Shown: positions 9,060 through 57,032, counted from the stretch's first letter. The stretch is 59,325 nt of DNA from Burkholderiales bacterium (GCA_041629335.1 JBFKNN010000002.1:1-59325); one strand, 5' to 3'. Translations and numbers: made by a program. The notes: generated by a model not told the origin, from the sequence alone.

Positions 9060-9896
9060 ATGCAGCTGATCATCGTCTCCGGCCTGTCGGGCTCGGGCAA
9101 GAGCGTTGCACTCAACGTGCTCGAAGACACCGGGTTCTACTGCGTCGACAACCTGCCGGCGAAGCTGGTCCCCGAGCTGATCGGTTTTCTCAAAACCGGC
9201 GAATCCGAGCGGGTGGCGCTCAGCATCGATGTGCGCAGCGGCCGCACCCTGGAAACACTGCCTGGGCATATTGCCGCGCTCCAGAGTGCCGGCGAGGACG
9301 TTCGAGTTCTCTTCCTCGACGCCAAGACCGATACGCTGATCAAGCGCTTTTCCGAGACGCGCCGGCGCCATCCGCTCTCGGATGGCGCGCTGACGCTGCG
9401 TGAGTGCATCGCCCGCGAGCGCGAGCTGCTCGCCGACGTGCGCGACCTCGCGCAGCGGGTCGACACGAGCGATCTCAGTCCGAACGCGCTGCGCGGCTGG
9501 GTCAGGGACTTCGTAAGTCTCAAGCGCGCGGGGCCGACGGTGCTGTTCCAGTCCTTCGGATACAAGAACGGCGTGCCGCTCGACGCCGACCTGGTTTTCG
9601 ACGTCCGTTGCCTGCCCAATCCGCACTACGACCCCCGCCTGCGGCCGTTGACCGGCAAGGACGAGGCGGTCATCGAATTCCTGCGCGCGCAGCCCAACTC
9701 GGCGGAGATGCTCGAGGATATCCGGCGTTTCGTCGCTCGCTGGCTGCCGGCTTTCGACCGCGACAACCGCAGCTATTTCACGGTAGCCATCGGCTGCACG
9801 GGCGGAAGGCATCGTTCGGTCTACTTCGTCGAAGCGCTGGCAGCGCTGTTCCGCGAGCACAGCGAGGTGCTGGTCAGGCACCGGGAACTCGCCTGA
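9060..9896 (+). CDS. rapZ: RNase adapter protein RapZ (YhbJ family P-loop protein)
   Basis: [33 protein letters not shown]..., C-terminal [11 protein letters not shown] motif. Confidence 0.93.
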
Positions 9897-13569: not shown

Positions 13570-13579
13570 CCGCGCGATT

Positions 13580-15864
13580 CTAACGCCTGAGCAGGCCTTT
13601 CAGGAGGTCGACGGCCCCACCCGCCGGATCAGGCTTGGTCCCGTCTTTGGGGGCGTCCTGCGCTGCGCCGCCGAGCCGTTCTTCGATCCTGCTCCGCACG
13701 GTCTGCTCGACCCTCTGTTTGACGGAATCCGTGACGACCGCGGTGAAATCGAGCCGGTACGCCGGCGCAGCGAGCGGGCCGCTCACCTTCACCGGCACCG
13801 TCAGTCCCGCCAGATCGTCGGCGCTGCGTCCGCCCTGCCCCTTGGTCGTTCCCACGATGGTGGCCTTCACCAGGTAGTCGAGCTTGTCTTCGCCGAGGTT
13901 GATGTCGCCGGCGCCGCCCACGCGCAGCAACGGCGACATCATCGTCAGATCGTCGTTTCGGGCAACGCCGTCCCGGATGTTGAAAGTCGCCTTGAGCTCG
14001 GAGAAGTCGGTCTTCTGCGCCTTGTCCGACTCCTGCACCTGCTCTCCCTGCAACGTGCCGAGCTTCGCCTTCGCGCCGCGGATCGACTGCGCCACGTTGA
14101 TCCCTTTGATCGCGCCGTCGGCAAGATTCACCACCGCCGTGCCGTTGAGCGACTTTTTGATCGCGGACACCGTGTTTCCCCGGGCGGTAACATCCAGCGC
14201 GACCGTGCCCTTGCCCTCGAGCGAGTCGTTGTCGGCGAGGTCCTTGAGCAACGGGCCGACGCTCACTCCGGCGAGCTTCTGCCGGATGCCGAACACCGGG
14301 CTCGCCTGCGCATTGACGGCGAGCGCGCCCGCGAGCGACCCCTGGTACAAATTGGCGGACATCGGGCTCACGTCGAGCTTGCCGTTCGCCGCCCTGATGT
14401 CGAGCCGCACGTTGGACGCCTTCACGTTCGACATTTTGAGCGAGCCGATTCTCACGCTGCCGTTGGCGTTGAGGCCCTTTAACGCAGCAAGGTCGATCGG
14501 CTGCTCGGGCTGTTTCGCCTTGGTATCCGCTTTCGGCAGATAGCGATCGGCGTCGAGCTGGTCGACATCGAGGTCAAAGGTATAGGACGGCGGGTCGAAC
14601 CGGGCGAGGCCCGCCCTGCCCTTGATGGTGCTCTCGTCGATTTTCGTGGCGAAGGTGGTGCTCGCGGTCTGCTTGGCCCAATCGACATCGACCGCGCCGT
14701 TCAAGCTCGCTTGCAGCGGCTTCTTCGGCAGCTGCGGGTGATTGACCGTGAAGTTCGCCGCGAGCTTGGAGAGCTCGAAGCGCTGCTTGTCGAGGCTTCC
14801 GGCCGCGGGGCTGGAAAGCTTGGCTTTGACCGCGGTCCCGTCCTGCTGCAGATCGACATCGGCCGTCAGCGCCGCCGCCTTGAACGCCGCGGCATTGCCC
14901 GTTAATGCGGAGAGCTCGACTTTGGCGACGAGCTTGCGGCTTTTCTCGTTCAACGTGGCCTCGAGCGCGACTTTCTCCCCGCTCACCGTCTCCTTGCTGA
15001 CGTTGAGCCGCGGGATCTCGAACTTGACGCTCAAGTCGCTTGCCGCCGGCTTGCCGGTAAGTGTCACGGTAAGCTTGGAGGCGGAAAGCTCCTGCGCCGC
15101 AGGCCGCAGCGCAACGTCGCCCTTGGCATTGAGCGCGAGGTTGGTCATCCCCGCGACCGCTCCTGTTGCCGCAACATCCAGCCCCTCGAGCGCGTAGCGC
15201 TGTTTCTCCAGGTCAATCAGCGCACGCGCCTTCGCCTTGGCCTCCACGTTGAGCTTCGGCTTGTCCGCCTGCAGCGCGACCGCGACATCGAGACTGGTCG
15301 GCACGCCGCTCGCAATGCGGCCGGTCTTGAGATTGAGCTTCGACAGCTCGTAGCGGGCGCCTGCTGCCTGGTCGGTAAACGTAAACGCCGAATCCTCGAT
15401 CAGCACGTGGTCGATGTCGATCTTGAGCGGCACCCCGGGCGCACCGCTTCTCGCCGCGGGCTTGGCATCCGCGCCAGCGAGATCGTCGAAATTGGTCTTG
15501 CCGTCCTTGAAGCGCACCAGATTGGCGCGCAGGCCCTTCACCTCGATCGCGTCGACCACTACCTGCCGCGACAGCAGGGGCACGAGCTTCACTACCACCT
15601 TGAGGTCCGTCACTGCCGCAAACTGCGCCTTGGCGTCGCGCTCGGATAATGCCGCCTTGCCGAGCCGCATACCGATGCTGGGAAAGAGCGCCAGCTTGAT
15701 ATCGCCTTCCAGCTTGAGATCGCGCTGGGTGTGCTCCTTCACCGCTCTCACGATTTGCGGCTTGTACTCGTTGGGATCGAAGGTCGCGGCGATATAGGCC
15801 AGGACGCCGCCGATCAGCAGAACCAGAATGCCCAGCGTGATGAGTGCGTACTTGAGTATTTTCA
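13580..15864 (-). CDS. AsmA family outer-membrane biogenesis protein
   Basis: MKILKYALITLGILVLLIGGVLAYIAATFDPNEYKPQI..., a long beta-rich body, AsmA-like C-terminus. Start is the internal ATG 15864 of ORF 13580..15997. Confidence 0.85.
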
Positions 15865-15886
15865 TGGCAGGGGTCGGTGACAAGGG

Positions 15887-15912
15887 GTGGAGCGGGTGGA
15901 GGGAATGTGGCC
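15887..15912. repeat. Copy of the tRNA-Gly 3' end (TGGAGCGGGTGGAGGGAAT, 18/19 identical to 16096..16114) followed by GTGGCCG
   Basis: Direct comparison with the tRNA sequence in the same orientation. Confidence 0.8.
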
Positions 15913-16095
15913 GACTCGCATTGCCTCTGCGATCCGTCCATCCGTCGCCGCAACGCGGCTCCGGACCGCCGGAACAAAATGCCGTTCCGGCGTCCAATCA
16001 AACGTCCACAGGACCTTTGATTGTCGAACCCGCTGTGGGTTCGATTGCACCCCCGTCGCAATCCGAAACAGGCCTCGCTGAAGCCGGTTTCGGAT

Positions 16096-16169
16096 TGGAG
16101 CGGGTGAAGGGAATCGAACCCTCGTATGCAGCTTGGGAAGCTGCCGTTCTACCATTGAACTACACCCGC
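16096..16169 (-). tRNA. tRNA-Gly (anticodon CCC), 74 nt with encoded CCA
   Basis: The minus strand reads GCGGGTG-TA-GTTC-AATGGTA-GAAC-G-GCAGC-TTCCCAA-GCTGC-ATAC-GAGGG-TTCGATT-CCCTT-CACCCGC-T-CCA. Cloverleaf folded by hand. It is close to my recollection of E. coli glyU. Confidence 0.9.
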
Positions 16170-16224
16170 GCGAGGTTCAATTCTACCTTTTTTCACACGA
16201 ACACGAGATCGCGGGCCCGACAGG

Positions 16225-16246
16225 GCGGGTGAAGGGAATGTGGCCG
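16225..16246. repeat. Second partial copy of the tRNA-Gly 3' end (GCGGGTGAAGGGAAT, 15/15) followed by the same GTGGCCG
   Basis: Direct comparison. It also shares a downstream GGCYCCGGACCGCCG block with the 15887 copy. Confidence 0.8.
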
Positions 16247-16464
16247 CCGCCGCTACACGGCCCCGGACCGCCGAAATCGCCCGACTGACCGAATTAGTCC
16301 TCGTGCACGTAAGGCCGATGAGGCGGCACTGCGGCCGCGCCTTTTCAAGGCGCCGGGGCCTTGTTAGACTGCCCTTCATAATCAGAACAAGCCGGTCCCG
16401 CAACGGTCCCGGCGTCGAAGTCGGACGGTTTAACTGAACAGCGTCACACTTGGGAGAAATCACC

Positions 16465-17730
16465 ATGCTCGCGCAAACCACCACCGCTTCCTACGGCGGC
16501 ACCGCGTCCTGGCTCGTTGCAGGCGCATTTCTTCTGACCACATTCACCGCACACGCGCAGCAGCAGCCCGCGGCCGCGCCCAAGCCGCCGCCAGCCTGGC
16601 ATCAGGGCAAGCCGCCGGCGATGGAAGGCTCCAAGCTCGCGCCGCACGCGGGCAAAATGACGGAGACCGCGGCCAGCGAGATCCCGATCGACAAGCTCAA
16701 GGTCCCGGCCGGCTTCAAGGTCGAGATCTGGGCCACGGGGATTCCCGGCGGGCGCGCGATGGCGCGCGGCGACAAAGGCAAGATCTACGTTGGCACGCGC
16801 GCCATCGGCCGCGTGTACGAGGTCACCGACAAGGGCAATGCGCGCGAGGCGCGAGTCGTTGTCGACAAGCTCGTGCAGCCCGCGGGCGTCGCATTCCACG
16901 GCGGCTCGCTCTACGTCATGGCGATCAACAAGGTGCTGCGCTTCGACGGCATCGAGGACAACCCCGCCGCGCAGCCGGTCGACCTGACAGACAAGTTCAA
17001 CCTGCCGCCGCTGCAGCACCACAACTGGAAGTACATCACTTTCGGCCCCGACAAGAAGCTCTACGTGCCGTTCGGCGCGCCGTGCAATATCTGCGAGCCG
17101 ACCGAGGAGTACGCGCAGATCCGCCGCTACAACGCGGACGGCTCGGGCATGGAGGTGATTGCGCGCGGCATACGCAACTCGCTCGGCTTCGACTGGCATC
17201 CCAAGACCGGCGAGTTCTGGTTCGTCGACCAGGGCCGCGACTGGATGGGCGACCAAGGCCCGCAGGAGGAGCTGAACCGCCTGACCAAGCCGGGCAAAGA
17301 GTTCTTCGGCTACCCGTACTGCCATGCGGAAGGCATTGCCGACGTCGACATCAAGAAGCCGGACCCGTGCAAGGGCGTGACCAAGCCGGTCGCGCTCCTG
17401 GGACCGCACGCCTCCGCATTGGGCACCAAGTTCTACACCGGCGGCATGTTCCCCGCGGATTACAAGGACACGCTGTTCATCGCCCGCAAGGGCTCGTGGA
17501 ACCGCACGCAGAAGTTCGGCTACGACGTGGTCAACGTCAGGATTGCTGCCGACGGCAAGAGCGCCAAGGTGACGCCGTTCCTGACCGGGTTCCTCGACGA
17601 GAAGGAGAATGCCTTCTGGGGCCGTCCGGCCTACATCCTGCAGATGCCGGATGGCGCGCTGCTCGTTTCCGACGAGCAGCTCGGGGCGATCTACCGCGTG
17701 AGCTTCGCCGGCCCGATGAAGAAGAAGTAG
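16465..17730 (+). CDS. PQQ-dependent sugar (glucose/sorbosone) dehydrogenase family protein, secreted
   Basis: Signal peptide, then beta-propeller-type repeats: GVAFHGGSLYV, RNSLGFDWHPKTGEFWFVDQGRDWMGD, GYPYCH. ATG 16465 is preceded by GGGAGA. Confidence 0.85.
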   Translation: MLAQTTTASYGGTASWLVAGAFLLTTFTAHAQQQPAAAPKPPPAWHQGKPPAMEGSKLAPHAGKMTETAASEIPIDKLKVPAGFKVEIWATGIPGGRAMARGDKGKIYVGTRAIGRVYEVTDKGNAREARVVVDKLVQPAGVAFHGGSLYVMAINKVLRFDGIEDNPAAQPVDLTDKFNLPPLQHHNWKYITFGPDKKLYVPFGAPCNICEPTEEYAQIRRYNADGSGMEVIARGIRNSLGFDWHPKTGEFWFVDQGRDWMGDQGPQEELNRLTKPGKEFFGYPYCHAEGIADVDIKKPDPCKGVTKPVALLGPHASALGTKFYTGGMFPADYKDTLFIARKGSWNRTQKFGYDVVNVRIAADGKSAKVTPFLTGFLDEKENAFWGRPAYILQMPDGALLVSDEQLGAIYRVSFAGPMKKK

Positions 17731-44441: not shown

Positions 44442-45434
44442 TCAGTCGGTTTTCCCTGGTGCGCGCGCCAGATCCCGCACCATCGCCGCCAGGGCCATCG
44501 TTACACGCGCAAGGCGCACGTAATCGACCTTGTCCGGCGTATCGCTCGGCGCATGATAATGCGGATAGCGGTACAACGCGGTGTCGGTCACCATCACGGC
44601 CGGCCAGCCCGCTTGCCAGAACGACCAGTGGTCCGACCAGTCCACGCCGGGAATGAACGACGGCGCCGCCACGCCCTCGGACGGAAAAGCCGCGTGGCGT
44701 CGAAACGCGCCGATTGCCTCGTGCAGCAGCCCGCGCGAGGCGAAGTTCGACACGAAGGCGATGAAATTGCCGGTGCTCGGATAGAACAGCCCCAGCGGAA
44801 ACGGATAGCGCTGGCTGCCCGGACGGTCCGAGTAATACCCGATGGTCTCGATCGAGAACATCGCCGCGAAGCGCTCGCCCCGCTCGCGCGCACGCCAGAC
44901 GTAGCGGCGGCTGCCCATCGCGTCGGTCTGAAAGAACGGCGGCTCTTCGTTGACGAACAGCACGAAGCGCAGCGTGCGGGCGGGGCGCGCGTCCTTCAGC
45001 AGCCGCGCCAGCTCCAGCACCGCGGCGACCCCCGAGCCGTTGTCGTTCGCCCCGGGCGCGCCGACGACAGAGTCGTAGTGCGCGCCGACCAGCACGATCT
45101 CGCCCCCCTGCACCGCGCCCTCGACCTCGACCTCGATGTTGCGCACCTCGCCGGTCGCCGCCGGGAAACGCTGCGCCTCGACACGATAGCCGAATCCGGC
45201 GAGCGTGCGCTCGATGTACTGCGCCGCGGCTTCCAGCTCGGAGAAGTTGAAAATGTTGTGCTCACGGCTGCCGATCGCTTCGACGTGACGCCGCAGATCG
45301 TCGGCGAGGCGGGTCTCTTCCGCAGTCAGCGCCGGCGGCGCACCGGAAAAGGATGCGCCCGGCATCTTGACCATGTACCACAGCAGCGCGGCGACCGCGG
45401 CCGCCAGCGTGAGCCAGAACAGCATGCGCAACAT
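44442..45434 (-). CDS. M28-family metallo-aminopeptidase, membrane-anchored
   Basis: LVGAHYDSV and ANDNGSGVAAVLELAR zinc-ligand motifs. N-terminal TM helix. Confidence 0.85.
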   Translation of the reverse strand: MLRMLFWLTLAAAVAALLWYMVKMPGASFSGAPPALTAEETRLADDLRRHVEAIGSREHNIFNFSELEAAAQYIERTLAGFGYRVEAQRFPAATGEVRNIEVEVEGAVQGGEIVLVGAHYDSVVGAPGANDNGSGVAAVLELARLLKDARPARTLRFVLFVNEEPPFFQTDAMGSRRYVWRARERGERFAAMFSIETIGYYSDRPGSQRYPFPLGLFYPSTGNFIAFVSNFASRGLLHEAIGAFRRHAAFPSEGVAAPSFIPGVDWSDHWSFWQAGWPAVMVTDTALYRYPHYHAPSDTPDKVDYVRLARVTMALAAMVRDLARAPGKTD

Positions 45435-45540: not shown

Positions 45541-46605
45541 TTAGCCGAGCGGCGCGATCTTCAGCTCGGCAGCGAGTTTCGCAAGCGCGTCCGCCAGCGC
45601 CGGCGGCAGCGGAATGCCGTTCTTCAGCCGGTCGGCGCGCGCCCTGTGGCTGCCCTCCCCCGGCAGGCGGATCGCATCCACGCCTGGCAGGCGCTTGCCG
45701 CCGCGGATGTCGCGGATCAGCGCGTCGACGCTTTGCTTGAATTCCGCGACCGGCTGGAACGCCGCGATATTGATCGCGACAATGACGTGCCCGGTGTTGG
45801 TCGGCGTCGTGTCATCGGCGTTGAAATCGACCACGTCCCTGCCCATCGCCGCCCCGTTCAGCGTCCCGGCGAGCAGACCGAAGACCAGCGCCAGGCCGTA
45901 TCCCTTGTAGCCGCCGATCGGCAGCAGAAAGCCCTCGTTGGAACGCCGGGGATCGGTAAGTGGCCTGCCCTGGCGGTCGATCATCCAGCCTTCGGGCATC
46001 GTCTCGCCGCGCTGCGCCTTGGTCTTGACCTTGCCGTAGGCCGCAACCGTGGTCGCCATGTCGAGGATGATCGGCGGCTCGTCTCCGGCGGGCAACGCCA
46101 CCGCGATCGGATTGGTCGAGAGCAGCATGTCGATCCCGCCCCACGGCGGCAGGTGGTTGGCGTTGCCGACCGCCAGGTAGAGCCCGATCATGTCGTGCGC
46201 CAGCGGCATGCCGGCGTAGAGCGAGGCCGGGCCGGCGTGATTGCTCCACTTGACGCCGACCCACGCCACGCCCGCGGTCTTTGCCTTCTCGATCGCCTTT
46301 TCGGTGGCGAAGCGCATCACGACGTGGCCCATGCCGTTATCGCCGTCGACGAGCGCCATGCCGGCCGCTTCGCGCGCGACCTTGACCGTGGGCCGCACGT
46401 TGACCGCGCCGCCCTTGATGCGGCGGATATACTGCGGCAGGCGGAAAATGCCGTGGCCTTCCGAGCCCTGCACGTCGGCGCGGGTCATGAGCTCGGCGAT
46501 CACTTTCGCATCGGCGGCGGGCATGTCGACCGCTGCCATGGCGCGGGCGATGAACGCCTCCAGTTTCTGCGTCGATATGCGCAGCGGTATGGCGGTGTCA
46601 GCCAT
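45541..46605 (-). CDS. Ldh_2-family (malate/L-lactate/pyrroline-2-carboxylate reductase type) NAD(P)H oxidoreductase
   Basis: GSEGHGIFRLPQYIRRIKGG and IGGYKGYGLAL. ATG 46605 is preceded by GAGGAGAG. Confidence 0.88.
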   Translation of the reverse strand: MADTAIPLRISTQKLEAFIARAMAAVDMPAADAKVIAELMTRADVQGSEGHGIFRLPQYIRRIKGGAVNVRPTVKVAREAAGMALVDGDNGMGHVVMRFATEKAIEKAKTAGVAWVGVKWSNHAGPASLYAGMPLAHDMIGLYLAVGNANHLPPWGGIDMLLSTNPIAVALPAGDEPPIILDMATTVAAYGKVKTKAQRGETMPEGWMIDRQGRPLTDPRRSNEGFLLPIGGYKGYGLALVFGLLAGTLNGAAMGRDVVDFNADDTTPTNTGHVIVAINIAAFQPVAEFKQSVDALIRDIRGGKRLPGVDAIRLPGEGSHRARADRLKNGIPLPPALADALAKLAAELKIAPLG

Positions 46606-46613
46606 TTCTCTCC

Positions 46614-46662
46614 TCACTTGTCACTTCTCACTCGTCACTCGTCACTCGTCACGCGTCACTCG
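46614..46662. repeat. Seven tandem heptamers (TCACTTG TCACTTC TCACTCG x3 TCACGCG TCACTCG), the complement of the GTGACGA family
   Basis: Read directly. Lies between the stop of the Bug gene (46668) and the Shine-Dalgarno of the Ldh_2 gene. Confidence 0.9.
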
Positions 46663-46667
46663 GAATG

Positions 46668-47645
46668 CTAATCAATCCGCACATCGTTGTCCTTGATGAT
46701 CTTCTCCCAGCGCTTCATCTCGGACAGCACGTAGGCGTTGAACTCGGCGGGCGAAGCGCTCAGGCTGATCGGAATCGCGCGCTTGGCCAGCTGCCCGTCG
46801 GCCTCGAGCTCGTTCATGGCCGCGACGATCTCGGCGTGCAGCCTGGTGACGATCGGCTTGGGGGTACGCGCCGGCGCGAAAATTCCGTTCCAGTTGAGGC
46901 TGCCGATGCCGGGGTAGCCGGCTTCGGCCATTGTCGGCACGTCGGGCAGGTCGGCCAGCCGCTGGTCCGCAGTCACCGCGAACGCCTTGATCTGTCCGGC
47001 GCGCACCGCGCCGATGTTGGACGCGACATTCGACTCGGTGATGTGTATGTCCCCGCGAATGAGCGCGGGCAGTGTCTCGCCCGCCCCTTTCGACGGCAGA
47101 TGCACCATTTTCACGCCCGCCGCCGCAGTGAGCGCGAGCATGTCCAGGTGGGAATACGAGCCCAGCGGCGCCTGGTAGTTGAGCTGTCCCTGGCGCTGCC
47201 GGGCGTAATCGAGCGCCTCCTTGAGGGTCCTCGCCGGAAGCTTCGGGCTGCCGAGTATGAAATTGGGGATCGCCACCAGCTTGGTAACGCCGGTGAGATC
47301 CTTCACCGCGCTCACCTTCATCCGCTTCGCGAACAAAATCGGATTGATCGAGTTGGTGCTGATGTTCCCGACCAGCAGCGTATAGCCGTCGGGCTGAGCC
47401 TGCGCGACGATCTCGACGGCGATGTTGCCGGCGGCGCCGGAGCGGTTGTCGACCACGATCTGCTGGCCGAGGCGCTTTGTGAGCCGGGGCTCGAGCACGC
47501 GCGCGATGATGTCGGTGGCGCCGCCGGGCGCGAACGGGATCACCAGCCGGATCGGCCGGGCCGGGTAGGCTTGCGGCTGCGCGGCATGCGCGGCGGTGCT
47601 CGCGGCGAGCAGCGCGAATACGAGAAAGCGAGTCAGACGAAGCAT
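46668..47645 (-). CDS. Bug-family (TctC-like) substrate-binding protein
   Basis: Signal peptide MLRLTRFLVFALLAASTAAHA, then YPARPIRLVIPFAPGGATD. Start at the internal ATG 47645. Confidence 0.9.
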   Translation of the reverse strand: MLRLTRFLVFALLAASTAAHAAQPQAYPARPIRLVIPFAPGGATDIIARVLEPRLTKRLGQQIVVDNRSGAAGNIAVEIVAQAQPDGYTLLVGNISTNSINPILFAKRMKVSAVKDLTGVTKLVAIPNFILGSPKLPARTLKEALDYARQRQGQLNYQAPLGSYSHLDMLALTAAAGVKMVHLPSKGAGETLPALIRGDIHITESNVASNIGAVRAGQIKAFAVTADQRLADLPDVPTMAEAGYPGIGSLNWNGIFAPARTPKPIVTRLHAEIVAAMNELEADGQLAKRAIPISLSASPAEFNAYVLSEMKRWEKIIKDNDVRID

Positions 47646-47788
47646 GTTGTTATCCTCCCTGTGGTGTTTGAATGCCGGCCTGGCGCATCCGGCCAGCCGG
47701 TCATCTGACGTATTCGATGCTCCTGCTTGCCGGCACACGGGCTCGGAGCCCTCCAACACATTGACCAGGCGCCAGGCCCATCAGCGCG

Positions 47789-48199
47789 TCAGCTGCCGTG
47801 TTCCTCGAGCTCGACCAGCGCGCCGAGAAAGTCCTTCGGGTGCACGAACGCGATGCGTCCGCCGTGGACGTTGTGTTGCGGCTTGCCGCCACCCAGCACC
47901 CGGGCGCCCCTGCCGGCGATCGCTTCACCGGTCGCATCCACGCTGTCGACCGCCAGGCAGAAATGATGGATCCCGCCGCGGGGATTGCGCTCGAGGAATT
48001 TCGAGACCGGCGAATCGGGGCGCGATGGCTCCATCAGCTCGATCTTCGCGTTGCCGAGGTCAACATAGCCCAGGCGAACGCCCTGCTGCTCGTTCACCTT
48101 CACCTCGCCCAGCTCGAGGCCGTAGACGTCCTTCAGGCGCCTTGCAGCGGCATCCAGGCTCGGCACGACGATGGAAATGTGGCTCAATCCGGTGATCAT
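47789..48199 (-). CDS. VOC-superfamily protein, methylmalonyl-CoA epimerase-like
   Basis: LSHISIVVPSLDAA..., IELMEP, GGIHHFCLAVDSVDA. Confidence 0.85.
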   Translation of the reverse strand: MITGLSHISIVVPSLDAAARRLKDVYGLELGEVKVNEQQGVRLGYVDLGNAKIELMEPSRPDSPVSKFLERNPRGGIHHFCLAVDSVDATGEAIAGRGARVLGGGKPQHNVHGGRIAFVHPKDFLGALVELEEHGS

Positions 48200-48233
48200 G
48201 AGACTGCCTCGTCGGTTGGCGGCCGGTTGCGGG

Positions 48234-49208
48234 TCAGTCCAGCCGCACGTTGTTGTCCTTGACGATCTTCACCCAGCGGTTCATCTCGGCCTGCACGAAA
48301 GCGTTGAACTCGGCTGGCGACGCGCTCACCGCGAGCGGCACCAGGCGCTTCGCGTACGTTTCCTTGAGCTCCGGCTCGCCCAGGACCTCGACGATGGTCG
48401 CATGCAGTTTGCCGATGATGGCGCGCGGCGTCTTCGCGGGGGCGAACAGCCCGACCCAGTTGATGCTGCCCACGCCCTTCAACCCCACCTCGGCGAAAGT
48501 CGGCACAGCCGCCAGTTCCGGGATGCGGGCATCGGCGGCGACCGCGTGGGCCTTGAGCTGCCCCGAGCGGATCAGTCCGATCACGGAGGCGACGGTCGTG
48601 TTCGAGACGTGCGCCTCGCCGCGCAGGAGCGAGGGGATCGTCTCTCCCGCGCCTTTCGACGGCAGGTGCACCATGTTCACGCCCGTGGCCGCCAGCAGCG
48701 CAAGCATGTCGAGGTGCGGATGGCCGCCAAGCGGTGCCGTGTAGTTCAGCTGCCCCGGCCTCGCCTTCGCATAGGCGATCAACTCGTCGAACGTGTTCGG
48801 CGGCAGCTTGGCACTGGTGATCAACACGTGGGGAATGGCGGCGAGGAGCGAGATTCCGGTGAGCTCCTTCACCGCATCGACCTTGATGCGGCCCGCGTAC
48901 AGCACCGGCACGAGCGCGCTCGAGGTATTGTTGCCCACGAGCAGCGTGTGCCCGTCCGGCTGCGCGCGCGCCGCGATTTCGAGCGCGATGCCGCCGGAGG
49001 CGCCGGGCCGGTTGTCGACCACGACCTGCTGGCCGAGCTTCTCGGTCAGCTTGGGGCCGACCAGCCGGGCGACGATATCGTTGGCGCCGCCCGGCGGGAA
49101 CGGGACGAGAAACCGGATCGGCCGGTTAGGGTAGTTTTGCGCGGCCGACGGTGTCGCCGCCAGGCCGGCCAGGGCCGCGGCCAGAAGCGATACGGCTATT
49201 CCTTTCAT
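48234..49208 (-). CDS. Bug-family (TctC-like) substrate-binding protein
   Basis: Signal peptide, then NYPNRPIRFLVPFPPGGAND. Confidence 0.9.
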   Translation of the reverse strand: MKGIAVSLLAAALAGLAATPSAAQNYPNRPIRFLVPFPPGGANDIVARLVGPKLTEKLGQQVVVDNRPGASGGIALEIAARAQPDGHTLLVGNNTSSALVPVLYAGRIKVDAVKELTGISLLAAIPHVLITSAKLPPNTFDELIAYAKARPGQLNYTAPLGGHPHLDMLALLAATGVNMVHLPSKGAGETIPSLLRGEAHVSNTTVASVIGLIRSGQLKAHAVAADARIPELAAVPTFAEVGLKGVGSINWVGLFAPAKTPRAIIGKLHATIVEVLGEPELKETYAKRLVPLAVSASPAEFNAFVQAEMNRWVKIVKDNNVRLD

Positions 49209-49229
49209 GTGCTCCCCTTTGTGACCGGC

Positions 49230-50465
49230 TTACGCGACCCCGCCCGGGCGTGGCGCGACGGCCAGCGGAATCAGGCTGCGCGCGCCGAAGCGGCGCACTG
49301 CCTCGTCGCGGCTTTTCAGGCATGCCTCACGCAATTCGAGGTAGGCGCGTCCCGCGGCCGTCTCATGCCAGAACCACCGGTTCGCATCGAGCGCGGCGCC
49401 CGCGCCCGGCTGCGCCGTCACTGCTTCCAGATAATAAGCCTTTAGGTCCTGGGTGGCGAGGCGCAGCGCCAGCACCACCTCCAGTGCCTGGTTGTAGCTC
49501 GGCGTGGCGGGGTCGGCGATGAAATCGGTGATGAATTTTGCGGCCGCAGCGGGCGCAAGACCGCTCAGCGTGGCGGTCGTGCGCTCGCGCCGGTTGCGCG
49601 CCAGCTCGTACCAAGGCGCAAGCTCAGCCACTTCTTTCCCGACCGCCGCGGCGAGCCCGTCGCCGGCGACCGGGCGGCTGAAGCTCACCGGGCAGGCGAA
49701 CCCTTGCACCTCCTCGGGCGCAACGGCGGGCGCGTCTTCCGGATAGTCCTCGAGCACGGGACCGGCCGGCGCTTCGAGCAGTCTCAATGCCGCGAGCACG
49801 ACCCGCCGCTGGAAGGCAGCGTCGCCCGGAACGCCCAGCGGGCGTCCAAGTATGAAAGGCACCCACAAGGTGCGCGGCGGCATGATCGCTTCGCTGTGCT
49901 CGCGCACGAGCGAGATCTGTGTTGTCGCGATGCCCTCCTGCTCAAGCCACTTCGCCAGCGCACCCACGGTGCACGTGCAGCGTGGTCAGACCGGCGTCAG
50001 CAATACCGCATCGACCCTGTCGCGCTTGAGCATTCCGGCCATGCGGCGCGCGGTGGGCTCGAGGCCCGGCACGCGCGCGGCACCCATTACCGCATAGTGG
50101 AAATCCGCGAGCGAGCCCACCGCGCCCTCGGCCGCGAGCTCGCGCATGCGGTCGATGGGAAACACGACGTTGGCGTCCTGCTGGAATCCGGTGCGGTCGA
50201 AATTGGACGAGAGATGGCTCATCACGAGCTCCTCCGCGCGCGCGTCGCCCGGGATCACGCGATAGTCGTTCGCCGCCGCGCCGTCGGCGTAAGGCGGATC
50301 GCTTGCGCGGTGGATTCCCGCGGTAGTCACGAGCGCCACGCGCCGGCGGTTGAGCGGAAGCCCCGAGACCCAGGGCGAGCCCGTGAGATTGAAGCCCGGA
50401 ATTTCCTTCAACATGTCGAGCAGCAGCTCGCGCTCCCATTGGCCGAGATCGGCGAGACGCGCCAT
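49230..50465 (-). CDS. GrdB/PrdB-family (glycine/betaine/sarcosine/D-proline reductase protein B-like) protein with an in-frame TGA at 49986..49988. Either a candidate selenoprotein (411 aa if read through) or a disrupted gene.
   Basis: ORFs 49986..50465 and 49230..49967 share a frame and are separated only by TGA plus 6 sense codons. The junction reads LLTPV-TGA-PRCTC. See finding. Confidence 0.6.
49958..49981 (-). other. GC-rich imperfect hairpin starting 7 nt after the in-frame TGA (SECIS candidate)
   Basis: mRNA GCUGCACGUGCACCGUGGGUGCGC. Hand-folded either as GC(U)GCAC/GUGCGC with a bulged U, or as GUGCACC/GGUGCGC with a GUG loop. Not validated computationally. Confidence 0.3.
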
Positions 50466-50601
50466 GAAAGAACCTCCTCAGATTGTGGTCCGGCGCGCGG
50501 GCGCGCCGAGCGGCTTATCGCCGCAAATCTGCTCCATCCGCGCGGGCGCGACAAGAGCCCATCCCGGCATTGCTGCCATGCCGCCAGGCTATGCCCGGCA
50601 A

Positions 50602-51807
50602 TCAGATGACTTTCTGCGCGCGCAGTTCCGCAACGCGCCCGTCGGAGAGCTCCAGGTCCTCGCGCAGCACCTGCTCGGTGTGCTGGCCGAGCGTCGGTGG
50701 CGCGCGGCGCACCGCCGCCGGTGTCGCGCTGAAACGGAACGGAATGCCGACCATCTTCAGGTCGCCCGCCGTCGGGTGCTTGACGGTGCGCACCATCTCG
50801 CGCGCCGCGGTGTGCTCGGCGTTGAGCGCCTGCGCCACGCTGTTGATGCGCCCGCAAGGAATGCCGGCTGCGGTGAGCTTCGCGAGCCAGGCTTCGGCGC
50901 CCTGCTCCTTGAGCACGCCAGCAACCATGTCATCCAGCGCCTCACGGTTCGCGATACGGTTCGAGTTCTTGACGTAGCGCGGATCGGTCGCCCACTCGGG
51001 CCGGCCGAGCGCCGCCGCGAACTTGCCGAACTGCGCGTCGTTCCCGACGGAGACCGCGATCATGTCGTCCCGCGTCGGGTACGCGGTGTAGGGCACGATA
51101 TTGGGATGCCCGTTGCCGAAGCGCCGCGCGTCCTTGCCGGAGACGAGGTAGTTGGACGCGACGTTGGCGAGCATCGCCAGGCTCGAATCGAACAGCGACA
51201 CCTCGACATGCTGGCCGCGCCCGGTGCGGTGGCGCGCGTTCAATGCGGCGAGAATCGAATTGCACGCGAGCATGCCGGTGCAAATATCAACGATGGCGAC
51301 GCCGTACTTCATCGGCGTGCCATCGGCCTCGCCGCAGATGCTCATCAGCCCCGATTCGGCCTGCAGGATGAAGTCGTAGCCGGGAAGCTTCGCCTTGGGG
51401 CCGGTCGAGCCGTAACCGGTGATCGAGCAGCGGATGACGCGCGGCGCGTTGGTCTCGAGCCAATCGTTGCCGAAGCCCCATTTTTCGAGGGTGCCGACCT
51501 TGAAATTCTCGACCACCACGTCGCTCTTGCGGATGAGCTGCGCGAGAATCTCCTGGCCCGGCTTCGCCGCCATGTTGAGCGTGATCGAGCGCTTGTTGCG
51601 GTTCACCCCGAGGTAATAGGCCGATTCGCCGTTGGCGAACGGCGGCCCCCACGTGCGGGTATCGTCGCCGGTGCCCACCGGCTCGACCTTGACCACGTCC
51701 GCGCCCATGTCGCCCAGCATCATCGTGCATAGCGGGCCGGCGAGGATGCGCGTGAGATCGAGAACGCGTATGCCCTCAAGCGCGCCGTCGTTGCTGTCAG
51801 CGGCCAT
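50602..51807 (-). CDS. Family III (CaiB/BaiF) CoA-transferase
   Basis: GIRVLDLTRILAGPLCTMMLGDMGADVVKVE, a full-length pattern. Confidence 0.92.
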   Translation of the reverse strand: MAADSNDGALEGIRVLDLTRILAGPLCTMMLGDMGADVVKVEPVGTGDDTRTWGPPFANGESAYYLGVNRNKRSITLNMAAKPGQEILAQLIRKSDVVVENFKVGTLEKWGFGNDWLETNAPRVIRCSITGYGSTGPKAKLPGYDFILQAESGLMSICGEADGTPMKYGVAIVDICTGMLACNSILAALNARHRTGRGQHVEVSLFDSSLAMLANVASNYLVSGKDARRFGNGHPNIVPYTAYPTRDDMIAVSVGNDAQFGKFAAALGRPEWATDPRYVKNSNRIANREALDDMVAGVLKEQGAEAWLAKLTAAGIPCGRINSVAQALNAEHTAAREMVRTVKHPTAGDLKMVGIPFRFSATPAAVRRAPPTLGQHTEQVLREDLELSDGRVAELRAQKVI

Positions 51808-51849
51808 CCCGTCTCCTGAAGGAAAAGCTGTTTGCGGGTTCGGTACGAA

Positions 51850-52755
51850 TCAACGCTTGCGGCGCATCGACGGTGGCGCGTTGAGATCCCGCTCGCAGCC
51901 GTCGATATACCGCGCGAGCTCGCGCTTGTCGCGCAGGCGGAACTTCTGGAAGTTCGGCTTGCGCCCGGCGAGGAACGCGTCCATGCCCTCCTTCGCCTCC
52001 TCCGAGCCCCACACGTGCGCCAGCAGCTCCATGCCGTGCTGCCAAGACGAGTACAGGTTGTCGGACTCGAAGTTGAGCGACTTCTTGGTCATGCGGATGG
52101 TGAGTGCACTGTGGCCCTTCATGGTCTTGCACCACTTGAGCGTTTCCTTGAGCAGGTCTTCTTGCGGCACGCACTTGTTGATGAGCCCGACCTCGACCGC
52201 CTCCCGCGCGGTGAAGCGGCGCGCGCAGAAGATCATTTCGCGCGCCAGGCGCTCGCCGATGATGCGGGGAATGTACTGGGTCGCCCCCACGGTGGGACAC
52301 GCGCCGACTTTTGCGCCGGTCTGGCCCAGCACGGCATTCTCGGAAGCGATCACGAGATCGCACCACAGGGCGAGCTCGTGGCCGCCGCCCATGCACCAGC
52401 CGTTGACCATCGCGATCACCGGGATCGGCAGGCCGCGGATCGTCATCGCGAGACCCAGCATGCGGTCGTTCCACATGTAGGCATTGGTGAAATTGAGCCG
52501 CTTCATCGCGTAGAAGTCGCCGCCTGCGGAGAACGCCTTGTCGCCGGCGCCGGTCACCACCGCGCACACGATCGAGGGATCCTCGCGCGTGGACTTGAGC
52601 GCCTCGATGATCTGATCCAGCGTCTGCTCGCGAAACGCGTTGAGCACGCGCGGGCGGTTGATGGTCACCCACGCGACCTGGTCCTTCACCTCGTACAGGA
52701 TGTCGGAGTATTTCCGCTTTGTGGACTTCGTCGATTTTCTCTTGCTGGCAGGCAT
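51850..52755 (-). CDS. Crotonase-superfamily enoyl-CoA hydratase/isomerase-like enzyme
   Basis: VTINRPRVLNAF, AFSAGGDF, NGWCMGGGHELALWCD. Start is the internal ATG 52755 of ORF 51850..52917. Confidence 0.88.
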   Translation of the reverse strand: MPASKRKSTKSTKRKYSDILYEVKDQVAWVTINRPRVLNAFREQTLDQIIEALKSTREDPSIVCAVVTGAGDKAFSAGGDFYAMKRLNFTNAYMWNDRMLGLAMTIRGLPIPVIAMVNGWCMGGGHELALWCDLVIASENAVLGQTGAKVGACPTVGATQYIPRIIGERLAREMIFCARRFTAREAVEVGLINKCVPQEDLLKETLKWCKTMKGHSALTIRMTKKSLNFESDNLYSSWQHGMELLAHVWGSEEAKEGMDAFLAGRKPNFQKFRLRDKRELARYIDGCERDLNAPPSMRRKR

Positions 52756-52915
52756 TGCTTCCCCCGGTCTGGCGCTGTCGTGATTTGAAAAAGGAGCCTG
52801 TGAGTTTACCAGATCGACACCGGCGTGATTGACACGGCCCGGGGCGCCGACTATCGTCAGCACGAAACACGGCCCGATTCGCAATCGCCGTTTGTCAAAG
52901 TAGGGGAGACCCATC

Positions 52916-53884
52916 ATGCGCCTCGTTCCAGCCCTGCAGGCCCTGCTGCTCGCGCTCGTCGCCGCCCACGGCGCCGCGGCCCAGTCCTATCCGGTGAAGC
53001 CGATCCGCATCATCGTGCCGTTTGCCGCGGGTGGCCCTACCGACACGCATTCGCGCTGGGCGGGGCAGCAGATCACTGCCGCACTCGGCCAGCAGGTGAT
53101 CGTCGACAACCGCGGCGGGGCGGGCGGGGTGATCGGCACTGAAGCCGCGGCCAAGGCCGCGCCCGACGGCTACACGCTGCTCGGGGGCAATCCGGGGCCG
53201 CTCACCATCGCGCCGAGCGTGCGCAAGCAGCTCAACTACGATCCGTCGAAGGACTTTGCGCCGATCACGTTGATCGCGCGCAGCGCAAGCTGCATGTGCG
53301 CGCACCCCAGCGTGCCGGTCAAGGGCCTGCGGGATTTCATCGCGCTGGCGAGGGCGAATCCGGACAAGATCAACTACGCGACACCCGGGATCGGCACCGT
53401 CGGCCACCTCGGCACCGAGCTCTTCTCCACAATGGCAGGAATCAAGATGAACATGGTGCCGTACAAGGGCGCGGCGCTCTATCTCATCGATCTGCTCGCC
53501 GGGAACATCGATTTTGCCTACGTGCAGATATTCCAGGCCACCCCGCACGTGCGCGCGGGCAAGCTGCGCGCCCTTGCGGTCACCGCGGCCGAGCGCTCGC
53601 CGCTGCTGCCGGAGATCGCGACCGCCGCCGAGCAGGGCGTCAAGGGATTTTCCAGCTACAACTGGAACGGCATCCTCGCGCCGGCCGGCACCCCGCCCGC
53701 GGTGATCGAGCGCCTGCACGCCGTGCTCGCCAAGCCGCTCACGGACCCGGCCGTGCGCAAGCAGCTCCAGGATGTCGGCTACGAGGTGGCGGGCGACGGC
53801 CCCGGTGAGTTCGCCACGTTCATGCGCGCCGAGACCGAAAAGTGGGCAGACGTGGCGAAGAAAGCCGGCATTCCTAAACAATGA
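52916..53884 (+). CDS. Bug-family (TctC-like) substrate-binding protein
   Basis: Signal peptide MRLVPALQALLLALVAAHGAAAQ, then SYPVKPIRIIVPFAAGGPTD. Confidence 0.9.
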   Translation: MRLVPALQALLLALVAAHGAAAQSYPVKPIRIIVPFAAGGPTDTHSRWAGQQITAALGQQVIVDNRGGAGGVIGTEAAAKAAPDGYTLLGGNPGPLTIAPSVRKQLNYDPSKDFAPITLIARSASCMCAHPSVPVKGLRDFIALARANPDKINYATPGIGTVGHLGTELFSTMAGIKMNMVPYKGAALYLIDLLAGNIDFAYVQIFQATPHVRAGKLRALAVTAAERSPLLPEIATAAEQGVKGFSSYNWNGILAPAGTPPAVIERLHAVLAKPLTDPAVRKQLQDVGYEVAGDGPGEFATFMRAETEKWADVAKKAGIPKQ

Positions 53885-54014: not shown

Positions 54015-54030
54015 AGATTTGGAACCAAGA

Positions 54031-55200
54031 ATGCCAGAGCAAAAAGACCCCGCCTACTTCATGTACTTTCCCGGCAACTACCGCTGGTCGGCCGCGTTCA
54101 TCAACATGCTGGGCAGCGTCGCTTATGGCGGCGCCGAGATCGGCGAGCTGCACAAGATCGGCCGCATGCTGAAGGGCAAGGCGGCCAACGACGACGCGGC
54201 CTGGTTCGACGCGTGCGCCAAAGTCGCCGACGGCGTGCGCGCCTATGCCGAGAAGTGGGACAAGGCGGGGCACCGCTACGCGGCCGCGCACGCCTATCTG
54301 CGCGCGTGCAATTACTACCAGATGGCCGAGCGTTTCCGCACTCCGAAGGATGAGACCGGGCTCGACATCTACCGGCGGGGCGTGAAGTGCTTCCATCGCC
54401 ACGCCGCTCTCACCGACTTGAGGATCGAAGTCGTCGAAGTGCCGTACGAGAACGGCAGTCTCCCGGGCTACTTCGTGCACGCTCAGAACGCGAAGTCGAA
54501 GCGCGCACCCTGCGTGGTGTTCTTCGACGGGCTCGACGTCACCAAGGAGATCCAGTTCGTCCGGGGCGTCTCCGATCTGATCAAACGCGGTATCTCGTGC
54601 CTGGTGATGGACGGCCCGGGCACCGGCGAGGCGATCCGCTTCCGCGGCTACGTTCTGCGGCACGATTACGAGGCCGCCGGCAGCGCCTGCGTCGACTTCC
54701 TCGAGAAACGCAGCGACGTCGACCCGAAGAAGATCGGGGTCGTCGCGATCAGCCTGGGCGGCTACTACGCCCCTCGCTGCGCGGCGATGGAGCCGCGCTT
54801 CGCGGCGTGCATCGCGTGGGGCGCGCAGTGGGACTACTACGCCACGTGGAAGAAGCGCATCGATGCTTCCTTCAAGACCTCCCTTTCCGTCCCGGGCCAC
54901 CACATCATGTGGATTCTGGGCGTCGATTCGCTGGACGCGGCATTGAAGGCGCTCGAGCCGTACAAGCTCGACGGCGTGATGCAGAAGATGCGCTGCCCGT
55001 TCCTGCTCGTGCACGGCGCCGACGATGAGCAGATACCCTTGGCCGACGCGCAGAAGCAGTTCGACGCGTGCGGCTCCAAGGACAAGACCTTCCGCGTCTA
55101 CACCGCCGAGGAAGGCGGGGCCCAGCACTGCCAGCGCGATTATCTGACGCTGGTCGTCGCCGACATGTGGAACTGGTTCGACGAGAAGCTCAACCGCTGA
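54031..55200 (+). CDS. Alpha/beta-fold hydrolase
   Basis: Nucleophile elbow VVAISLGGYYA and LLVHGADDEQIP. Start at ATG 54031 rather than the TTG 54019 used by the track. Confidence 0.8.
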   Translation: MPEQKDPAYFMYFPGNYRWSAAFINMLGSVAYGGAEIGELHKIGRMLKGKAANDDAAWFDACAKVADGVRAYAEKWDKAGHRYAAAHAYLRACNYYQMAERFRTPKDETGLDIYRRGVKCFHRHAALTDLRIEVVEVPYENGSLPGYFVHAQNAKSKRAPCVVFFDGLDVTKEIQFVRGVSDLIKRGISCLVMDGPGTGEAIRFRGYVLRHDYEAAGSACVDFLEKRSDVDPKKIGVVAISLGGYYAPRCAAMEPRFAACIAWGAQWDYYATWKKRIDASFKTSLSVPGHHIMWILGVDSLDAALKALEPYKLDGVMQKMRCPFLLVHGADDEQIPLADAQKQFDACGSKDKTFRVYTAEEGGAQHCQRDYLTLVVADMWNWFDEKLNR

Positions 55201-55254
55201 CGGCATCACCGCGAACGCATCGCCCGGCTGCCGGGGAGGAGCGGGCGCGGCACT

Positions 55255-55280
55255 TCATCACTCATCACTCATCACTCACC
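55255..55280. repeat. Heptamer array (TCATCAC)x3 plus a partial unit, directly upstream of the CocE/NonD gene start
   Basis: Read directly. Ends 6 nt before ATG 55287, and no purine-rich Shine-Dalgarno is visible. Confidence 0.85.
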
Positions 55281-55286
55281 TCCGCT

Positions 55287-57032
55287 ATGAGCACCTACAA
55301 GAGCGAAGTTCGCGACGGCATGCGCATCGACTGGGACGTGCCGGTCACCATGGACGACGGCCTGGTGCTCCGCGCCGACGTATTCCGCCCGATCACCCCC
55401 GGGCGCTACCCGGCGCTGGTGAGTTACGGCCCGTATGGCAAGGGGCTCGCGTTCCAGGAGGGCTACAAGACCGCCTGGGACATCATGGCGCGCGACAACC
55501 CCGACGCCGTCAGCGGCACCACCAACCAGTACGCCAACTGGGAAGTGGCCGATCCGGAGAAGTGGGTGCCCGACGGTTACGCCTGCGTGCGCGTGGATTC
55601 GCGCGGCGCGGGGCGCTCTCCAGGCTACCTCAATCACAACAACGCGCGCGAAAACCGCGACTTCGCCAACTGCATCGAGTGGGTCGCTAAGCAGTCGTGG
55701 TGCGACGGCAAGGTGGGGCTCAACGGGATCTCGTACTACGCGAGCAGCCAGTGGCGCGCCGCGGCGCTCAATCCGCCGCATCTGGCCGCGATCTGTGTCT
55801 GGGAAGGGTGGGTGGATTATTACCGCGATTCGGTGCGCCACGGCGGCATCGCCTGCACCTTCCGCAAGAACTGGCAGGAGATGCAGGTGAAGACGGTGCA
55901 GCACGGCCGCGGCGAGCGCGGGCCGAAGAGCCGCGTTACCGGCGAGCTGGTATGCGGGCCGGAAACGCTGCCCGAAGAGGAGCTCGCGAAGAACCGCGCC
56001 GACATGTGGGTAGGCGTGCTCGAGCATCCGCTCGCCAACGACGACTACTATCGCCAGCGCACCGCCGATCTCTCGAAGATCACCGTGCCGCTGCTGTCGG
56101 CGGCCAACTGGGGCGGCCAGGGCCTGCATCCGCGCGGCAATTTCGAGGGGTTCGTGCGCGCGGCCTCGCGCGAGAAATGGCTGGAAGTGCACGGCGGCTC
56201 GCACTGGGCGCCGTTCTACACCGACTGGGGCGTCAGGCTCCAGAAACGCTTCTTCGACTACTTCCTCAAGGGCGAGCAGAACGGCTGGGACAAGCAGCCG
56301 CGCGTCACGCTCAAGGTGCGGCACCCGGGCGAGAAGTTCGTCGAGCGCCACGAGAACGAGTGGCCGCTCGCCCGCACGCAGTGGACACGCTACTACCTCG
56401 ACCCTCGCAGCAAGTCTCTGTCAGTGAAGCCGCCGGAGGCCGACGCGCCGGTGAGCTACGACGCGATGGGCGATGGCGTCACCTTCTCCACGCCGCCGCT
56501 CGAGCAGCCGACCGAGATCACCGGCCCCTCGGCACTGAAGCTCTTCCTTTCCTCCTCCACCGCCGACGCCGACATCTTCGCCGTGCTGCGGGTGTTCGAT
56601 CCGCAGGGCAAGGAGCTCGTGTTCCAGGGCGCGCTCGACCCGCACACCCCGATCGCACAGGGGTGGCTGCGCGCCTCGCACCGCAAGCTCGATCCGAAGC
56701 TCACCCTGCCGTACCGCCCGTATCACACGCACGACGAGAAGCAGCCGCTCAAACCCGGCGAGGTCTACGAACTCGACGTGGAGATCTGGCCGACCTGCAT
56801 CGTCGTGCCGGCGGGCTGGCGCATCGCGCTCACCATCCGCGGCAAGGACTACGAGTACGGGGGCGAGGCCGCGACGCTGTCGAACATGAAAAACCCGATG
56901 CGCGGCTGCGGGCCGTTCGTGCACGACGATCCCACCGACCGTCCGGTGGAGGTGTTCGGCGGCAAGGTGACGCTGCATTGCGGCGCGGGGCGGGAGGCGT
57001 TCTTGCTACTGCCGGTGATTCCGGGCAAGTGA
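55287..57032 (+). CDS. CocE/NonD-family (S15 X-Pro dipeptidyl-peptidase-like) hydrolase
   Basis: MSTYKSEVRDGMRIDWDVPVTMDDGLVLRADVFRP..., RVDSRGAGRSPG, GLNGISYYASSQW. Start is the internal ATG of ORF 55068..57032. Confidence 0.88.
   Translation: MSTYKSEVRDGMRIDWDVPVTMDDGLVLRADVFRPITPGRYPALVSYGPYGKGLAFQEGYKTAWDIMARDNPDAVSGTTNQYANWEVADPEKWVPDGYACVRVDSRGAGRSPGYLNHNNARENRDFANCIEWVAKQSWCDGKVGLNGISYYASSQWRAAALNPPHLAAICVWEGWVDYYRDSVRHGGIACTFRKNWQEMQVKTVQHGRGERGPKSRVTGELVCGPETLPEEELAKNRADMWVGVLEHPLANDDYYRQRTADLSKITVPLLSAANWGGQGLHPRGNFEGFVRAASREKWLEVHGGSHWAPFYTDWGVRLQKRFFDYFLKGEQNGWDKQPRVTLKVRHPGEKFVERHENEWPLARTQWTRYYLDPRSKSLSVKPPEADAPVSYDAMGDGVTFSTPPLEQPTEITGPSALKLFLSSSTADADIFAVLRVFDPQGKELVFQGALDPHTPIAQGWLRASHRKLDPKLTLPYRPYHTHDEKQPLKPGEVYELDVEIWPTCIVVPAGWRIALTIRGKDYEYGGEAATLSNMKNPMRGCGPFVHDDPTDRPVEVFGGKVTLHCGAGREAFLLLPVIPGK

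Follow-up and report, generated by a model that had tools for sequence, protein, structure and literature searches.

An in-frame TGA as a very probable selenocysteine codon in a PrdB-like gene of a Burkholderiales bacterium

How should a gene be read when a single TGA divides a reading frame that otherwise looks coding on both sides? The question is raised by a locus on the minus strand of a 59,325-nt stretch of DNA from a Burkholderiales bacterium (GCA_041629335.1 JBFKNN010000002.1:1-59325; coordinates run 5′ to 3′), which as a whole is referred to here as the window. At positions 49230..50465 the callers of open reading frames (ORFs) split the sequence into two ORFs of 159 and 245 aa. Based on the TGA column in relatives, on a covarying hairpin downstream of the TGA and on the cysteine forms of the protein, we propose that the TGA at codon 160 is very probably a selenocysteine (Sec) codon and that the gene belongs to a PrdB-like selenoprotein family.

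One reading frame and a conserved TGA column

The ORF layout bore out an earlier description made without database searches (the sequence-only reading), according to which two minus-strand ORFs lie in one frame and are separated only by a TGA and six sense codons. The upstream ORF (50465..49986) starts with ATG and terminates after 159 aa at the TGA (49988..49986); beyond it the frame continues through six sense codons (PRCTCT) into the ORF that the callers start at a GTG (49967..49230), and it ends at a TAA (49232..49230). Read as a single gene, 49230..50465 holds 411 sense codons including Sec160, followed by the TAA stop, and both the length of the read-through product and the junction peptide are exactly as quoted in that reading. 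A Shine-Dalgarno-like GAGGAGG (50473..50479, minus strand), read from the sequence, stands 8 nt 5′ of the ATG at 50465, and the downstream ORF, as had also been noticed, is called from an internal GTG that has no Shine-Dalgarno sequence. The GC content by codon position is of the coding type in both halves (0.72/0.48/0.84 and 0.75/0.53/0.80). Additionally, in an independent assembly that is near-identical (GCA_041574655.1), the genes stand in the same order, the TGA region does not differ, and the gene is likewise annotated as 159 + 245 aa.

Apart from this site, scanning the whole window for in-frame TGAs between coding-like stretches returned one case only, a trivial gene boundary within the same frame. 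There, the TGA that closes the enoyl-CoA (coenzyme A) hydratase gene (51850..51852) shares its frame with the next CoA-transferase ORF; it was rejected as a second Sec candidate, being an ordinary stop, with 42 nt of spacer between it and the next ATG.

The evidence that carries the Sec assignment comes from relatives. In the species genomes of GTDB, a scan detected 80 loci with 49-82% identity and tblastn coverage of residues 1-411, mostly from metagenome-assembled genomes (MAGs) of Burkholderiales and other Betaproteobacteria, the rest from Alphaproteobacteria, Dehalococcoidia/Chloroflexota, Desulfobacterales, Desulfarculaceae and Binatia. Across these several phyla, all 82 gene copies carry TGA at the column of residue 160, and the close orthologues with TGC or TGT that the sequence-only reading had named as a ground for doubt did not turn up among them. 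A protein search returned about 110 matches of 226-263 aa, which are C-terminal fragments with 56-99% identity, together with a few full-length proteins of 387-445 aa with 43-47% identity. In nine of the nine full-length homologues aligned over residues 1-411, the TGA column holds Cys, within the motif PV-C-P[NS]-C-[TS]R; the column is thus aligned with Cys and not displaced from it, the outcome that would have told against a Sec codon. Downstream of the TGA 21 residues are invariant among 46 sequences, and U/C160, C163 and C258 are invariant among 91. No sign of the decay that had been considered was found in the gene, and the sequence past the TGA is both coding-type and conserved.

The family is large. 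At E<1e-30, a profile search over 1.84 billion cluster representatives (50%-identity clusters) yielded 388 clusters. Among the best 150 representatives, 146 are fragments, about 150-340 aa long and mostly of 210-260 aa, which start at or near the first profile position, just past the TGA. A marine clade in which both forms are mixed came from a metagenome scan that used Cys forms as seeds, with 34 further distinct TGA sequences against 26 distinct Cys-form (TGC/TGT, or TGY) sequences.

Some genomes hold tandem duplicates or two to three dispersed paralogues, with TGA in every copy; examples are L067 (10460, 11689), L080 (10460, 11691), and the sets L001 with L031, L007 with L017 and L040, and L026 with L033 (L numbers denote sampled loci). 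The MAG records L009, L013, L014, L018, L034, L048, L049 and L061, with Burkholderiales-like copies, are titled 'Bordetella parapertussis' or 'Streptomycetaceae/Streptomyces', labels that look like binning or naming artefacts.

The hairpin downstream of the TGA

Where a bacterial selenocysteine insertion sequence (SECIS) would be expected, the transcript can form the core hairpin GUGCACC-GUG-GGUGCGC (49958..49974, minus strand), which occupies nt 15-31 when counting starts at the U of UGA and whose 7-bp stem is capped by the 3-nt loop GUG (49967..49965). The published model of the bacterial SECIS (bSECIS) specifies a loop of 3-9 nt, an upper stem of 4-16 bp, a G in the first two loop positions followed by G or U, a UGA-to-loop distance of 16-37 nt and a minimum free energy (MFE) of at most -7.5 kcal/mol (PMC13188914). 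The hairpin agrees with this model in its GUG loop, its 7-bp stem, a loop that starts 18 nt past the UGA and a core MFE of -9.5 kcal/mol. The GC-rich hairpin that the sequence-only reading had placed at 49958..49981 stands, through this fit and through the covariation described below, while its extent does not, the conserved core being 49974..49958.

The hairpin is present at nt 15-31 in every relative. Among 81 distinct sequences, 96.5% of the cells of the 7-bp helix are paired, changes on both sides occur in five of the seven pairs, and none of 500 shuffles matched the observed covariation score; when the 3′ partner is slid by 1-3 columns as a control, pairing falls to 21-44%. Pair 16-30 occurs as UA (54), CG (13), UG (8), GC (4) and AU (2) and is never unpaired, and the loop nucleotides G22 and U23 are invariant. 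The strongest single result for a SECIS concerns two codons. Codon U+9, which encodes Ala (GCA, GCG, GCC or GCT), always has as its third base the complement of the first base of codon U+5 (TGC, CGC, GGC or AGC, encoding Cys, Arg, Gly or Ser), and the rare GCA is used at U+9 in 50 of 68 cases, compared with 12.8% elsewhere in these genes. Some of the compensation thus runs through rare synonymous codons, which selection at the level of the protein cannot explain. The pair counts were made directly on the 7-bp helix since RNAalifold, run on the 81-sequence alignment, returned the inner 4 bp only.

The Cys forms serve as a further control. In the marine clade, the TGA forms keep 5.7 of the 7 stem pairs with an MFE of -10.8, against 3.2 of 7 and -5.3 for the TGY forms (Mann-Whitney p ~5e-9), in a comparison that ignores phylogeny and GC content (0.62 vs 0.51).

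Around the core, the window sequence can form an extended lower stem (49947..49985, minus strand), in which nt 4-7 pair with 39-42 and nt 10-12 with 34-36, giving an MFE structure of -20.8 kcal/mol, and which varies among clades. A conserved lower helix in another register (nt 2-7 with 32-37), paired at 68% across relatives, is not claimed. An Rfam scan of the window gave one tRNA only, and no Rfam family matched the hairpin element.

Family identity and the competing explanations

Profile searches, made on the fused protein with Cys put at position 160, matched Pfam GRDB (PF07355) over residues 38-157 with 47.6 bits against a cut-off of 22 (E = 1.8e-12), which places the protein in that superfamily. 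The NCBIfam PrdB profile (TIGR04483) matched residues 37-231 to profile positions 26-219 of 238, collinearly across the TGA, with 91.9 bits, while the N-terminal ORF alone reached profile position 145 only, with 76.5 bits. The membership in the GrdB/PrdB family that had been proposed from the sequence is supported by both matches. So is the placing of Sec at a PrdB-like U-x-x-C position, as the PrdB profile is collinear over U160 and homologues have Cys there; the correspondence to the Sec position of PrdB and GrdB is read from the collinear profile coordinates. The PrdB/GrdB-type catalytic domain accordingly spans residues ~37-231 (49773..50357, minus strand) and contains the motif U160-P-R-C163-T-C165.

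Behind it lies a family-specific C-terminal region, residues 232-411 (49233..49772, minus strand), which holds the invariant Cys258 (49694..49692) and a predicted all-helical domain. It had been estimated at about 250 aa; since PrdB homology reaches residue ~231, it measures about 180 aa. The view that it is foreign to clostridial GrdB and PrdB held, in that residues 232-411 lie beyond those profiles, and neither Pfam nor NCBIfam gave a match to the region. For P0065, a 45%-identical Cys homologue from Falsiroseomonas selenitidurans, an AlphaFold2 model (predicted local distance difference test score 85, predicted template modelling score 0.85) consists of an alpha/beta domain followed by an all-helical domain with helices at 268-403. 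In the PDB, no useful relative was found by sequence, a fold search gave no match at E<1e-3, and no GrdB or PrdB structure surfaced; therefore the fold offers no functional lead.

The gene is a member of an already catalogued selenoprotein family, and its Sec codon is in itself no new discovery. In the selenoproteomes of the Sargasso Sea (PMC1088965) and of the Global Ocean Sampling (GOS) survey (PMC2398784), 'Proline reductase PrdB' (pfam07355, UxxC) is among the most abundant families, with 235 Sec against 110 Cys sequences in the latter (PMC2398784), and the supplement of Zhang & Gladyshev 2008 (PMC2398784) prints sequences of the same family, C-terminal domain included. One of them, JCVI_READ_1695995, shares 46% identity with the window protein over 309 aa (BLASTP E = 3e-92) with its U aligned to the TGA, which identifies the two as one family. 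The likeness extends to the motif PV-U-P[NR]C-T, to the UxxC, to the dominance of Sec forms beside existing Cys homologues and, downstream, to PPRxLWVPFxLGRPxG, GPVLxDF, ACP, PWYEL..RGRTT, LKAYYxEA and WFWxET. It is on the TGA in relatives, the Cys in homologues and the U in these GOS sequences that the prediction of Sec at 49986..49988 is based. The window copy differs in coming from a GC-rich betaproteobacterial lineage (its closest MAG is SG8_41, at 82%), in having UxxCxC instead of UxxC-T-R and, compared with the sampled marine clade, in its neighbours, which are CoA-transferase, hydratase, TctC and Ldh_2 genes instead of the TauD-family gene with which the marine gene is paired.

Could the protein then be a bona fide D-proline reductase PrdB, converting D-proline to 5-aminovalerate with a pyruvoyl PrdA encoded elsewhere? 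PrdB is the best NCBIfam match, the literature label is 'proline reductase', prolyl/X-Pro-family peptidases flank the operon in the window, and the operon contains an Ldh_2-family dehydrogenase, a family that includes pyrroline-2-carboxylate reductases. PrdB of Clostridium sticklandii and C. difficile also resembles the window protein in its homologous alpha/beta domain, in Sec at a collinear U-x-x-C and in a SECIS immediately 3′ of the Sec codon. However, the 91.9 bits fall far below the curated equivalog cut-off of 300, and PrdB has about 240 aa and ends with its domain, whereas the 411-aa window protein continues over residues 232-411, outside the profile, with an additional helical domain of ~180 aa that carries an invariant Cys. 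The 20 annotated window ORFs and the conserved neighbours in 80 genome and 80 metagenome loci include no gene of the PrdA/GrdE type, and no PrdC was found with the family in the loci examined. The hosts are Proteobacteria, Chloroflexota and others, not Stickland-fermenting clostridia, and the neighbourhoods (TauD, AhpD-like, CoA-transferase) are unrelated to Stickland metabolism. A true proline reductase is therefore improbable, although it survives better than the other alternatives considered here, and the name of the family appears to express resemblance; function is not demonstrated by it.

Kinship with GrdB, GrdF and GrdH (PF07355, TIGR01917/01918) is of a similar kind. What the window protein matches in GrdB is the C-terminal half with the Sec site (profile 221-422 of 431); it is without the N-terminal 220 residues. 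The GrdB motif is described as UxxCxxC (PMC13188914), against UxxCxC here. Nearby in the window there is no grdA, grdE, grdC or grdD, and the scores remain below the cut-offs, at 52.2 against 602.2 bits for TIGR01917 (GrdB) and, only just, at 59.5 against 65.45 bits for TIGR01918 ('various_sel_PB'). Literature searches on 'PrdB-like', 'GrdB-like' and GRDB with TauD found nothing on the function of the subfamily.

The remaining alternatives concern the TGA itself. Two separate genes may be supposed, with a stop at the TGA and re-initiation at the GTG at 49967, whose products, a 159-aa GRDB protein and a 245-aa protein, would assemble non-covalently. The callers give exactly this split, GTG is a legal start codon, and among the ordinary stops of the window TGA is the most frequent (25 of 43 genes). 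Against this, the six codons between TGA and GTG are conserved as protein, including the invariant Cys163, and each Cys form is one continuous chain that has Cys in the column of the TGA. The GTG, besides having no Shine-Dalgarno sequence, is a Val codon that forms the apical loop of the covarying hairpin, which explains why many database fragments begin 'MGAL...', and in 34 of 83 copies the codon is GTC, GTT or GTA, which are unable to initiate. These observations make two genes a highly unlikely arrangement.

Equally little speaks for the view that near-cognate suppression or a reassigned code has one of the standard amino acids (Trp, Cys or Gly) inserted at the UGA. Many bacteria show leaky UGA codons, and Sec machinery was not seen in the 59-kb window; nevertheless, TGA terminates most window genes and the genetic code is therefore not reassigned, the SECIS-type hairpin with its invariant GU loop is maintained in TGA forms only, and homologues have a redox Cys at this column, which makes up the classic Sec/Cys pair. 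Moreover, some relatives carry tRNA-Sec, selD, selA and selB in physical linkage with the gene. In L057, a Rhodospirillaceae MAG, tRNA-Sec and selD (507 bits) lie directly upstream of the gene (1505-2679); in L077, a Hyphomicrobiales MAG, selA (596 bits), selB (421 bits) and tRNA-Sec lie 1.7-5 kb downstream (12859-16586); and in L029, a Betaproteobacteria MAG, a SelD fused to a pyridine-nucleotide-disulfide oxidoreductase domain lies 8.5 kb upstream (9-1403). Insertion of a standard amino acid is accordingly very hard to credit.

Finally, a decaying pseudogene, or a sequencing or assembly error for TGC or TGT, would fit a gene that is intact apart from one in-frame stop and has Cys-form homologues, but it is effectively refuted by the TGA at the same column in 82 of 82 relatives, across phyla and down to 49% identity, by the 34 additional distinct marine sequences with TGA, by the 251 downstream codons that keep coding composition and invariant residues, and by the independent assembly that is identical at the TGA.

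Several observations weigh against reading the locus as a Sec-encoding gene of a PrdB-like enzyme. No tRNA-Sec, selA, selB or selD was found in the 59-kb window, so that the Sec trait is seen in relatives and not in this genome. The window hairpin by itself folds no better than shuffled sequences (z = -1.25); of the fold check that had been suggested for this region, the formation of the hairpin was confirmed and its significance was not, and the support for the hairpin is for that reason taken from the comparative data, that is, from covariation. The Sec/Cys comparison of the hairpin carries the confounding by phylogeny and GC content noted above, and the three first-sampled Cys forms, a sample of 3 only, kept 5, 5 and 7 of the 7 pairs. 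One of these early Cys forms thus retained a perfect 7-bp stem, with a non-GU loop, and part of the palindrome may accordingly stem from the peptide sequence. Lastly, the gene neighbourhoods differ among clades with no partner subunit conserved family-wide, and the mechanism proposed below is drawn entirely by analogy.

Gene neighbourhood and possible function

In the window, the gene lies in a co-directional, tightly spaced block on the minus strand (45541..52917), whose other members were assigned by Pfam matches. Upstream of it are genes for an enoyl-CoA hydratase (51850-52917) and a CoA-transferase III (50602-51807), and downstream follow a TctC binding protein (48234-49208), a glyoxalase/VOC protein (47789-48199), a second TctC (46668-47759) and, at the end of the block, an Ldh_2 dehydrogenase (45541-46617). 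The same block occurs in eight relatives (L001, L014, L015, L017, L023, L046, L047 and L085) and is not family-wide. Peptidase-type genes flank it, of the M28, S9-like alpha/beta hydrolase and S15 'X-Pro dipeptidyl-peptidase' families; the genes at the flanks and the end of the block are located at 44442-45434, 45541-46617 (Ldh_2), 54019-55200 and 55068-57032. Together with Ldh_2, the peptidase flanks hint weakly at a theme of amino acids or imino acids.

In other clades the surroundings are different. An AhpD-like/YciW-related gene lies at most three genes away in 16 of 81 loci and is often itself a split CxxU selenoprotein gene, and this proximity suggests a possible redox partnership with the PrdB-like protein. 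The second selenoprotein has the motif AHGCHY-TGA-MAHTAG, as in L029 (9343-9957 and 11270-11866, TGA at 9604-9606), and split versions are found also in L030, L033, L035, L041, L054, L058, L045, L049 and L076, while uninterrupted CxxC versions stand directly upstream in L004, L013 and L064.

In the marine clade (L086-L165), 55 of 79 loci, namely 34 of the 39 with the Cys form and 21 of the 40 with the Sec form, have a gene for a TauD/TfdA-family Fe/2-oxoglutarate dioxygenase as a direct neighbour on the same strand. The TauD gene of L127 (3133-4008) and the selenoprotein gene, which starts at 4001, overlap by 8 nt at stop and start. Targeted literature searches turned up no report on the pairing of TauD and PrdB-like genes. 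A TauD-family pairing was seen also in L039, L048, L056, L060 and L082. Other neighbours recur in subsets of loci, among them a radical-SAM + DUF3641 protein, and a Pyr_redox_2 oxidoreductase to which a DedA/VTT membrane domain is fused; stand-alone DedA/VTT proteins are neighbours in 27 Cys-form marine loci (examples of these neighbours are L004 7273-8238, L065 1828-3972 and L143 3275-3979).

What reaction might such an enzyme perform? In PrdB and GrdB the selenol attacks, an Se-S bond forms with the cysteine of the x-x-C, and a dithiol re-reduces it (PMC13188914), and relatives of GrdB have been proposed to cleave the C-F bond in fluoroacetate (PMC10838667). Taken together, these point to reductive C-alpha-X cleavage beside a carboxylate as a theme of the superfamily. 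By analogy with PrdB and GrdB, we tentatively suggest a reaction of the reductive type also for the window protein, though the odds are rather against this being right. The UGA at codon 160 is very probably decoded as Sec by SelB and tRNA-Sec, directed by the 7-bp GUG-loop hairpin within the coding sequence. The selenol of U160 could then act as the nucleophile in a reductive step, by the same analogy the cleavage of a C-alpha-X bond, which would end in an Se-S bond between U160 and Cys163, and a dithiol partner, perhaps thioredoxin or an AhpD-like CxxC/CxxU protein, could re-reduce this bond. The enzyme would work without a pyruvoyl PrdA/GrdE subunit, and its substrate may be a small carboxylate or CoA-ester that is imported and processed by the products of the neighbouring TctC, CoA-transferase, hydratase and Ldh_2 genes.

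More broadly, the metagenomic 'PrdB' family may be a stand-alone selenoenzyme of aerobic or facultative bacteria and not a proline reductase, a proposal that we hold to be plausible while giving it somewhat less than an even chance. In such an enzyme, the helical domain with Cys258 would replace PrdA/GrdE in substrate binding, and the reaction could be reductive C-alpha-X cleavage or another selenol-dependent reduction, with substrates and partners specific to each clade. The partners could be the translationally coupled TauD-type dioxygenase in the marine clade, the AhpD-like CxxU/CxxC protein in groundwater Betaproteobacteria and the CoA-ester enzymes in the lineage of the window.

In conclusion, the gene is mis-called as two hypothetical proteins, as are, across the samples examined, most of its relatives in the family, and the TGA together with the 17-nt hairpin provides a simple rule for repairing such split gene calls. 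The family is among the most abundant environmental selenoproteins, with Sec and not Cys in most sampled members, and its borrowed name, 'proline reductase', is unsupported by the membership tests made here. The remaining interest lies in the function of this abundant, systematically mis-annotated and Sec-dominated family and in the partner associations noticed, among which the pairings with the TauD-family gene and with the AhpD-like selenoprotein are concrete starting points for the search for its substrate.

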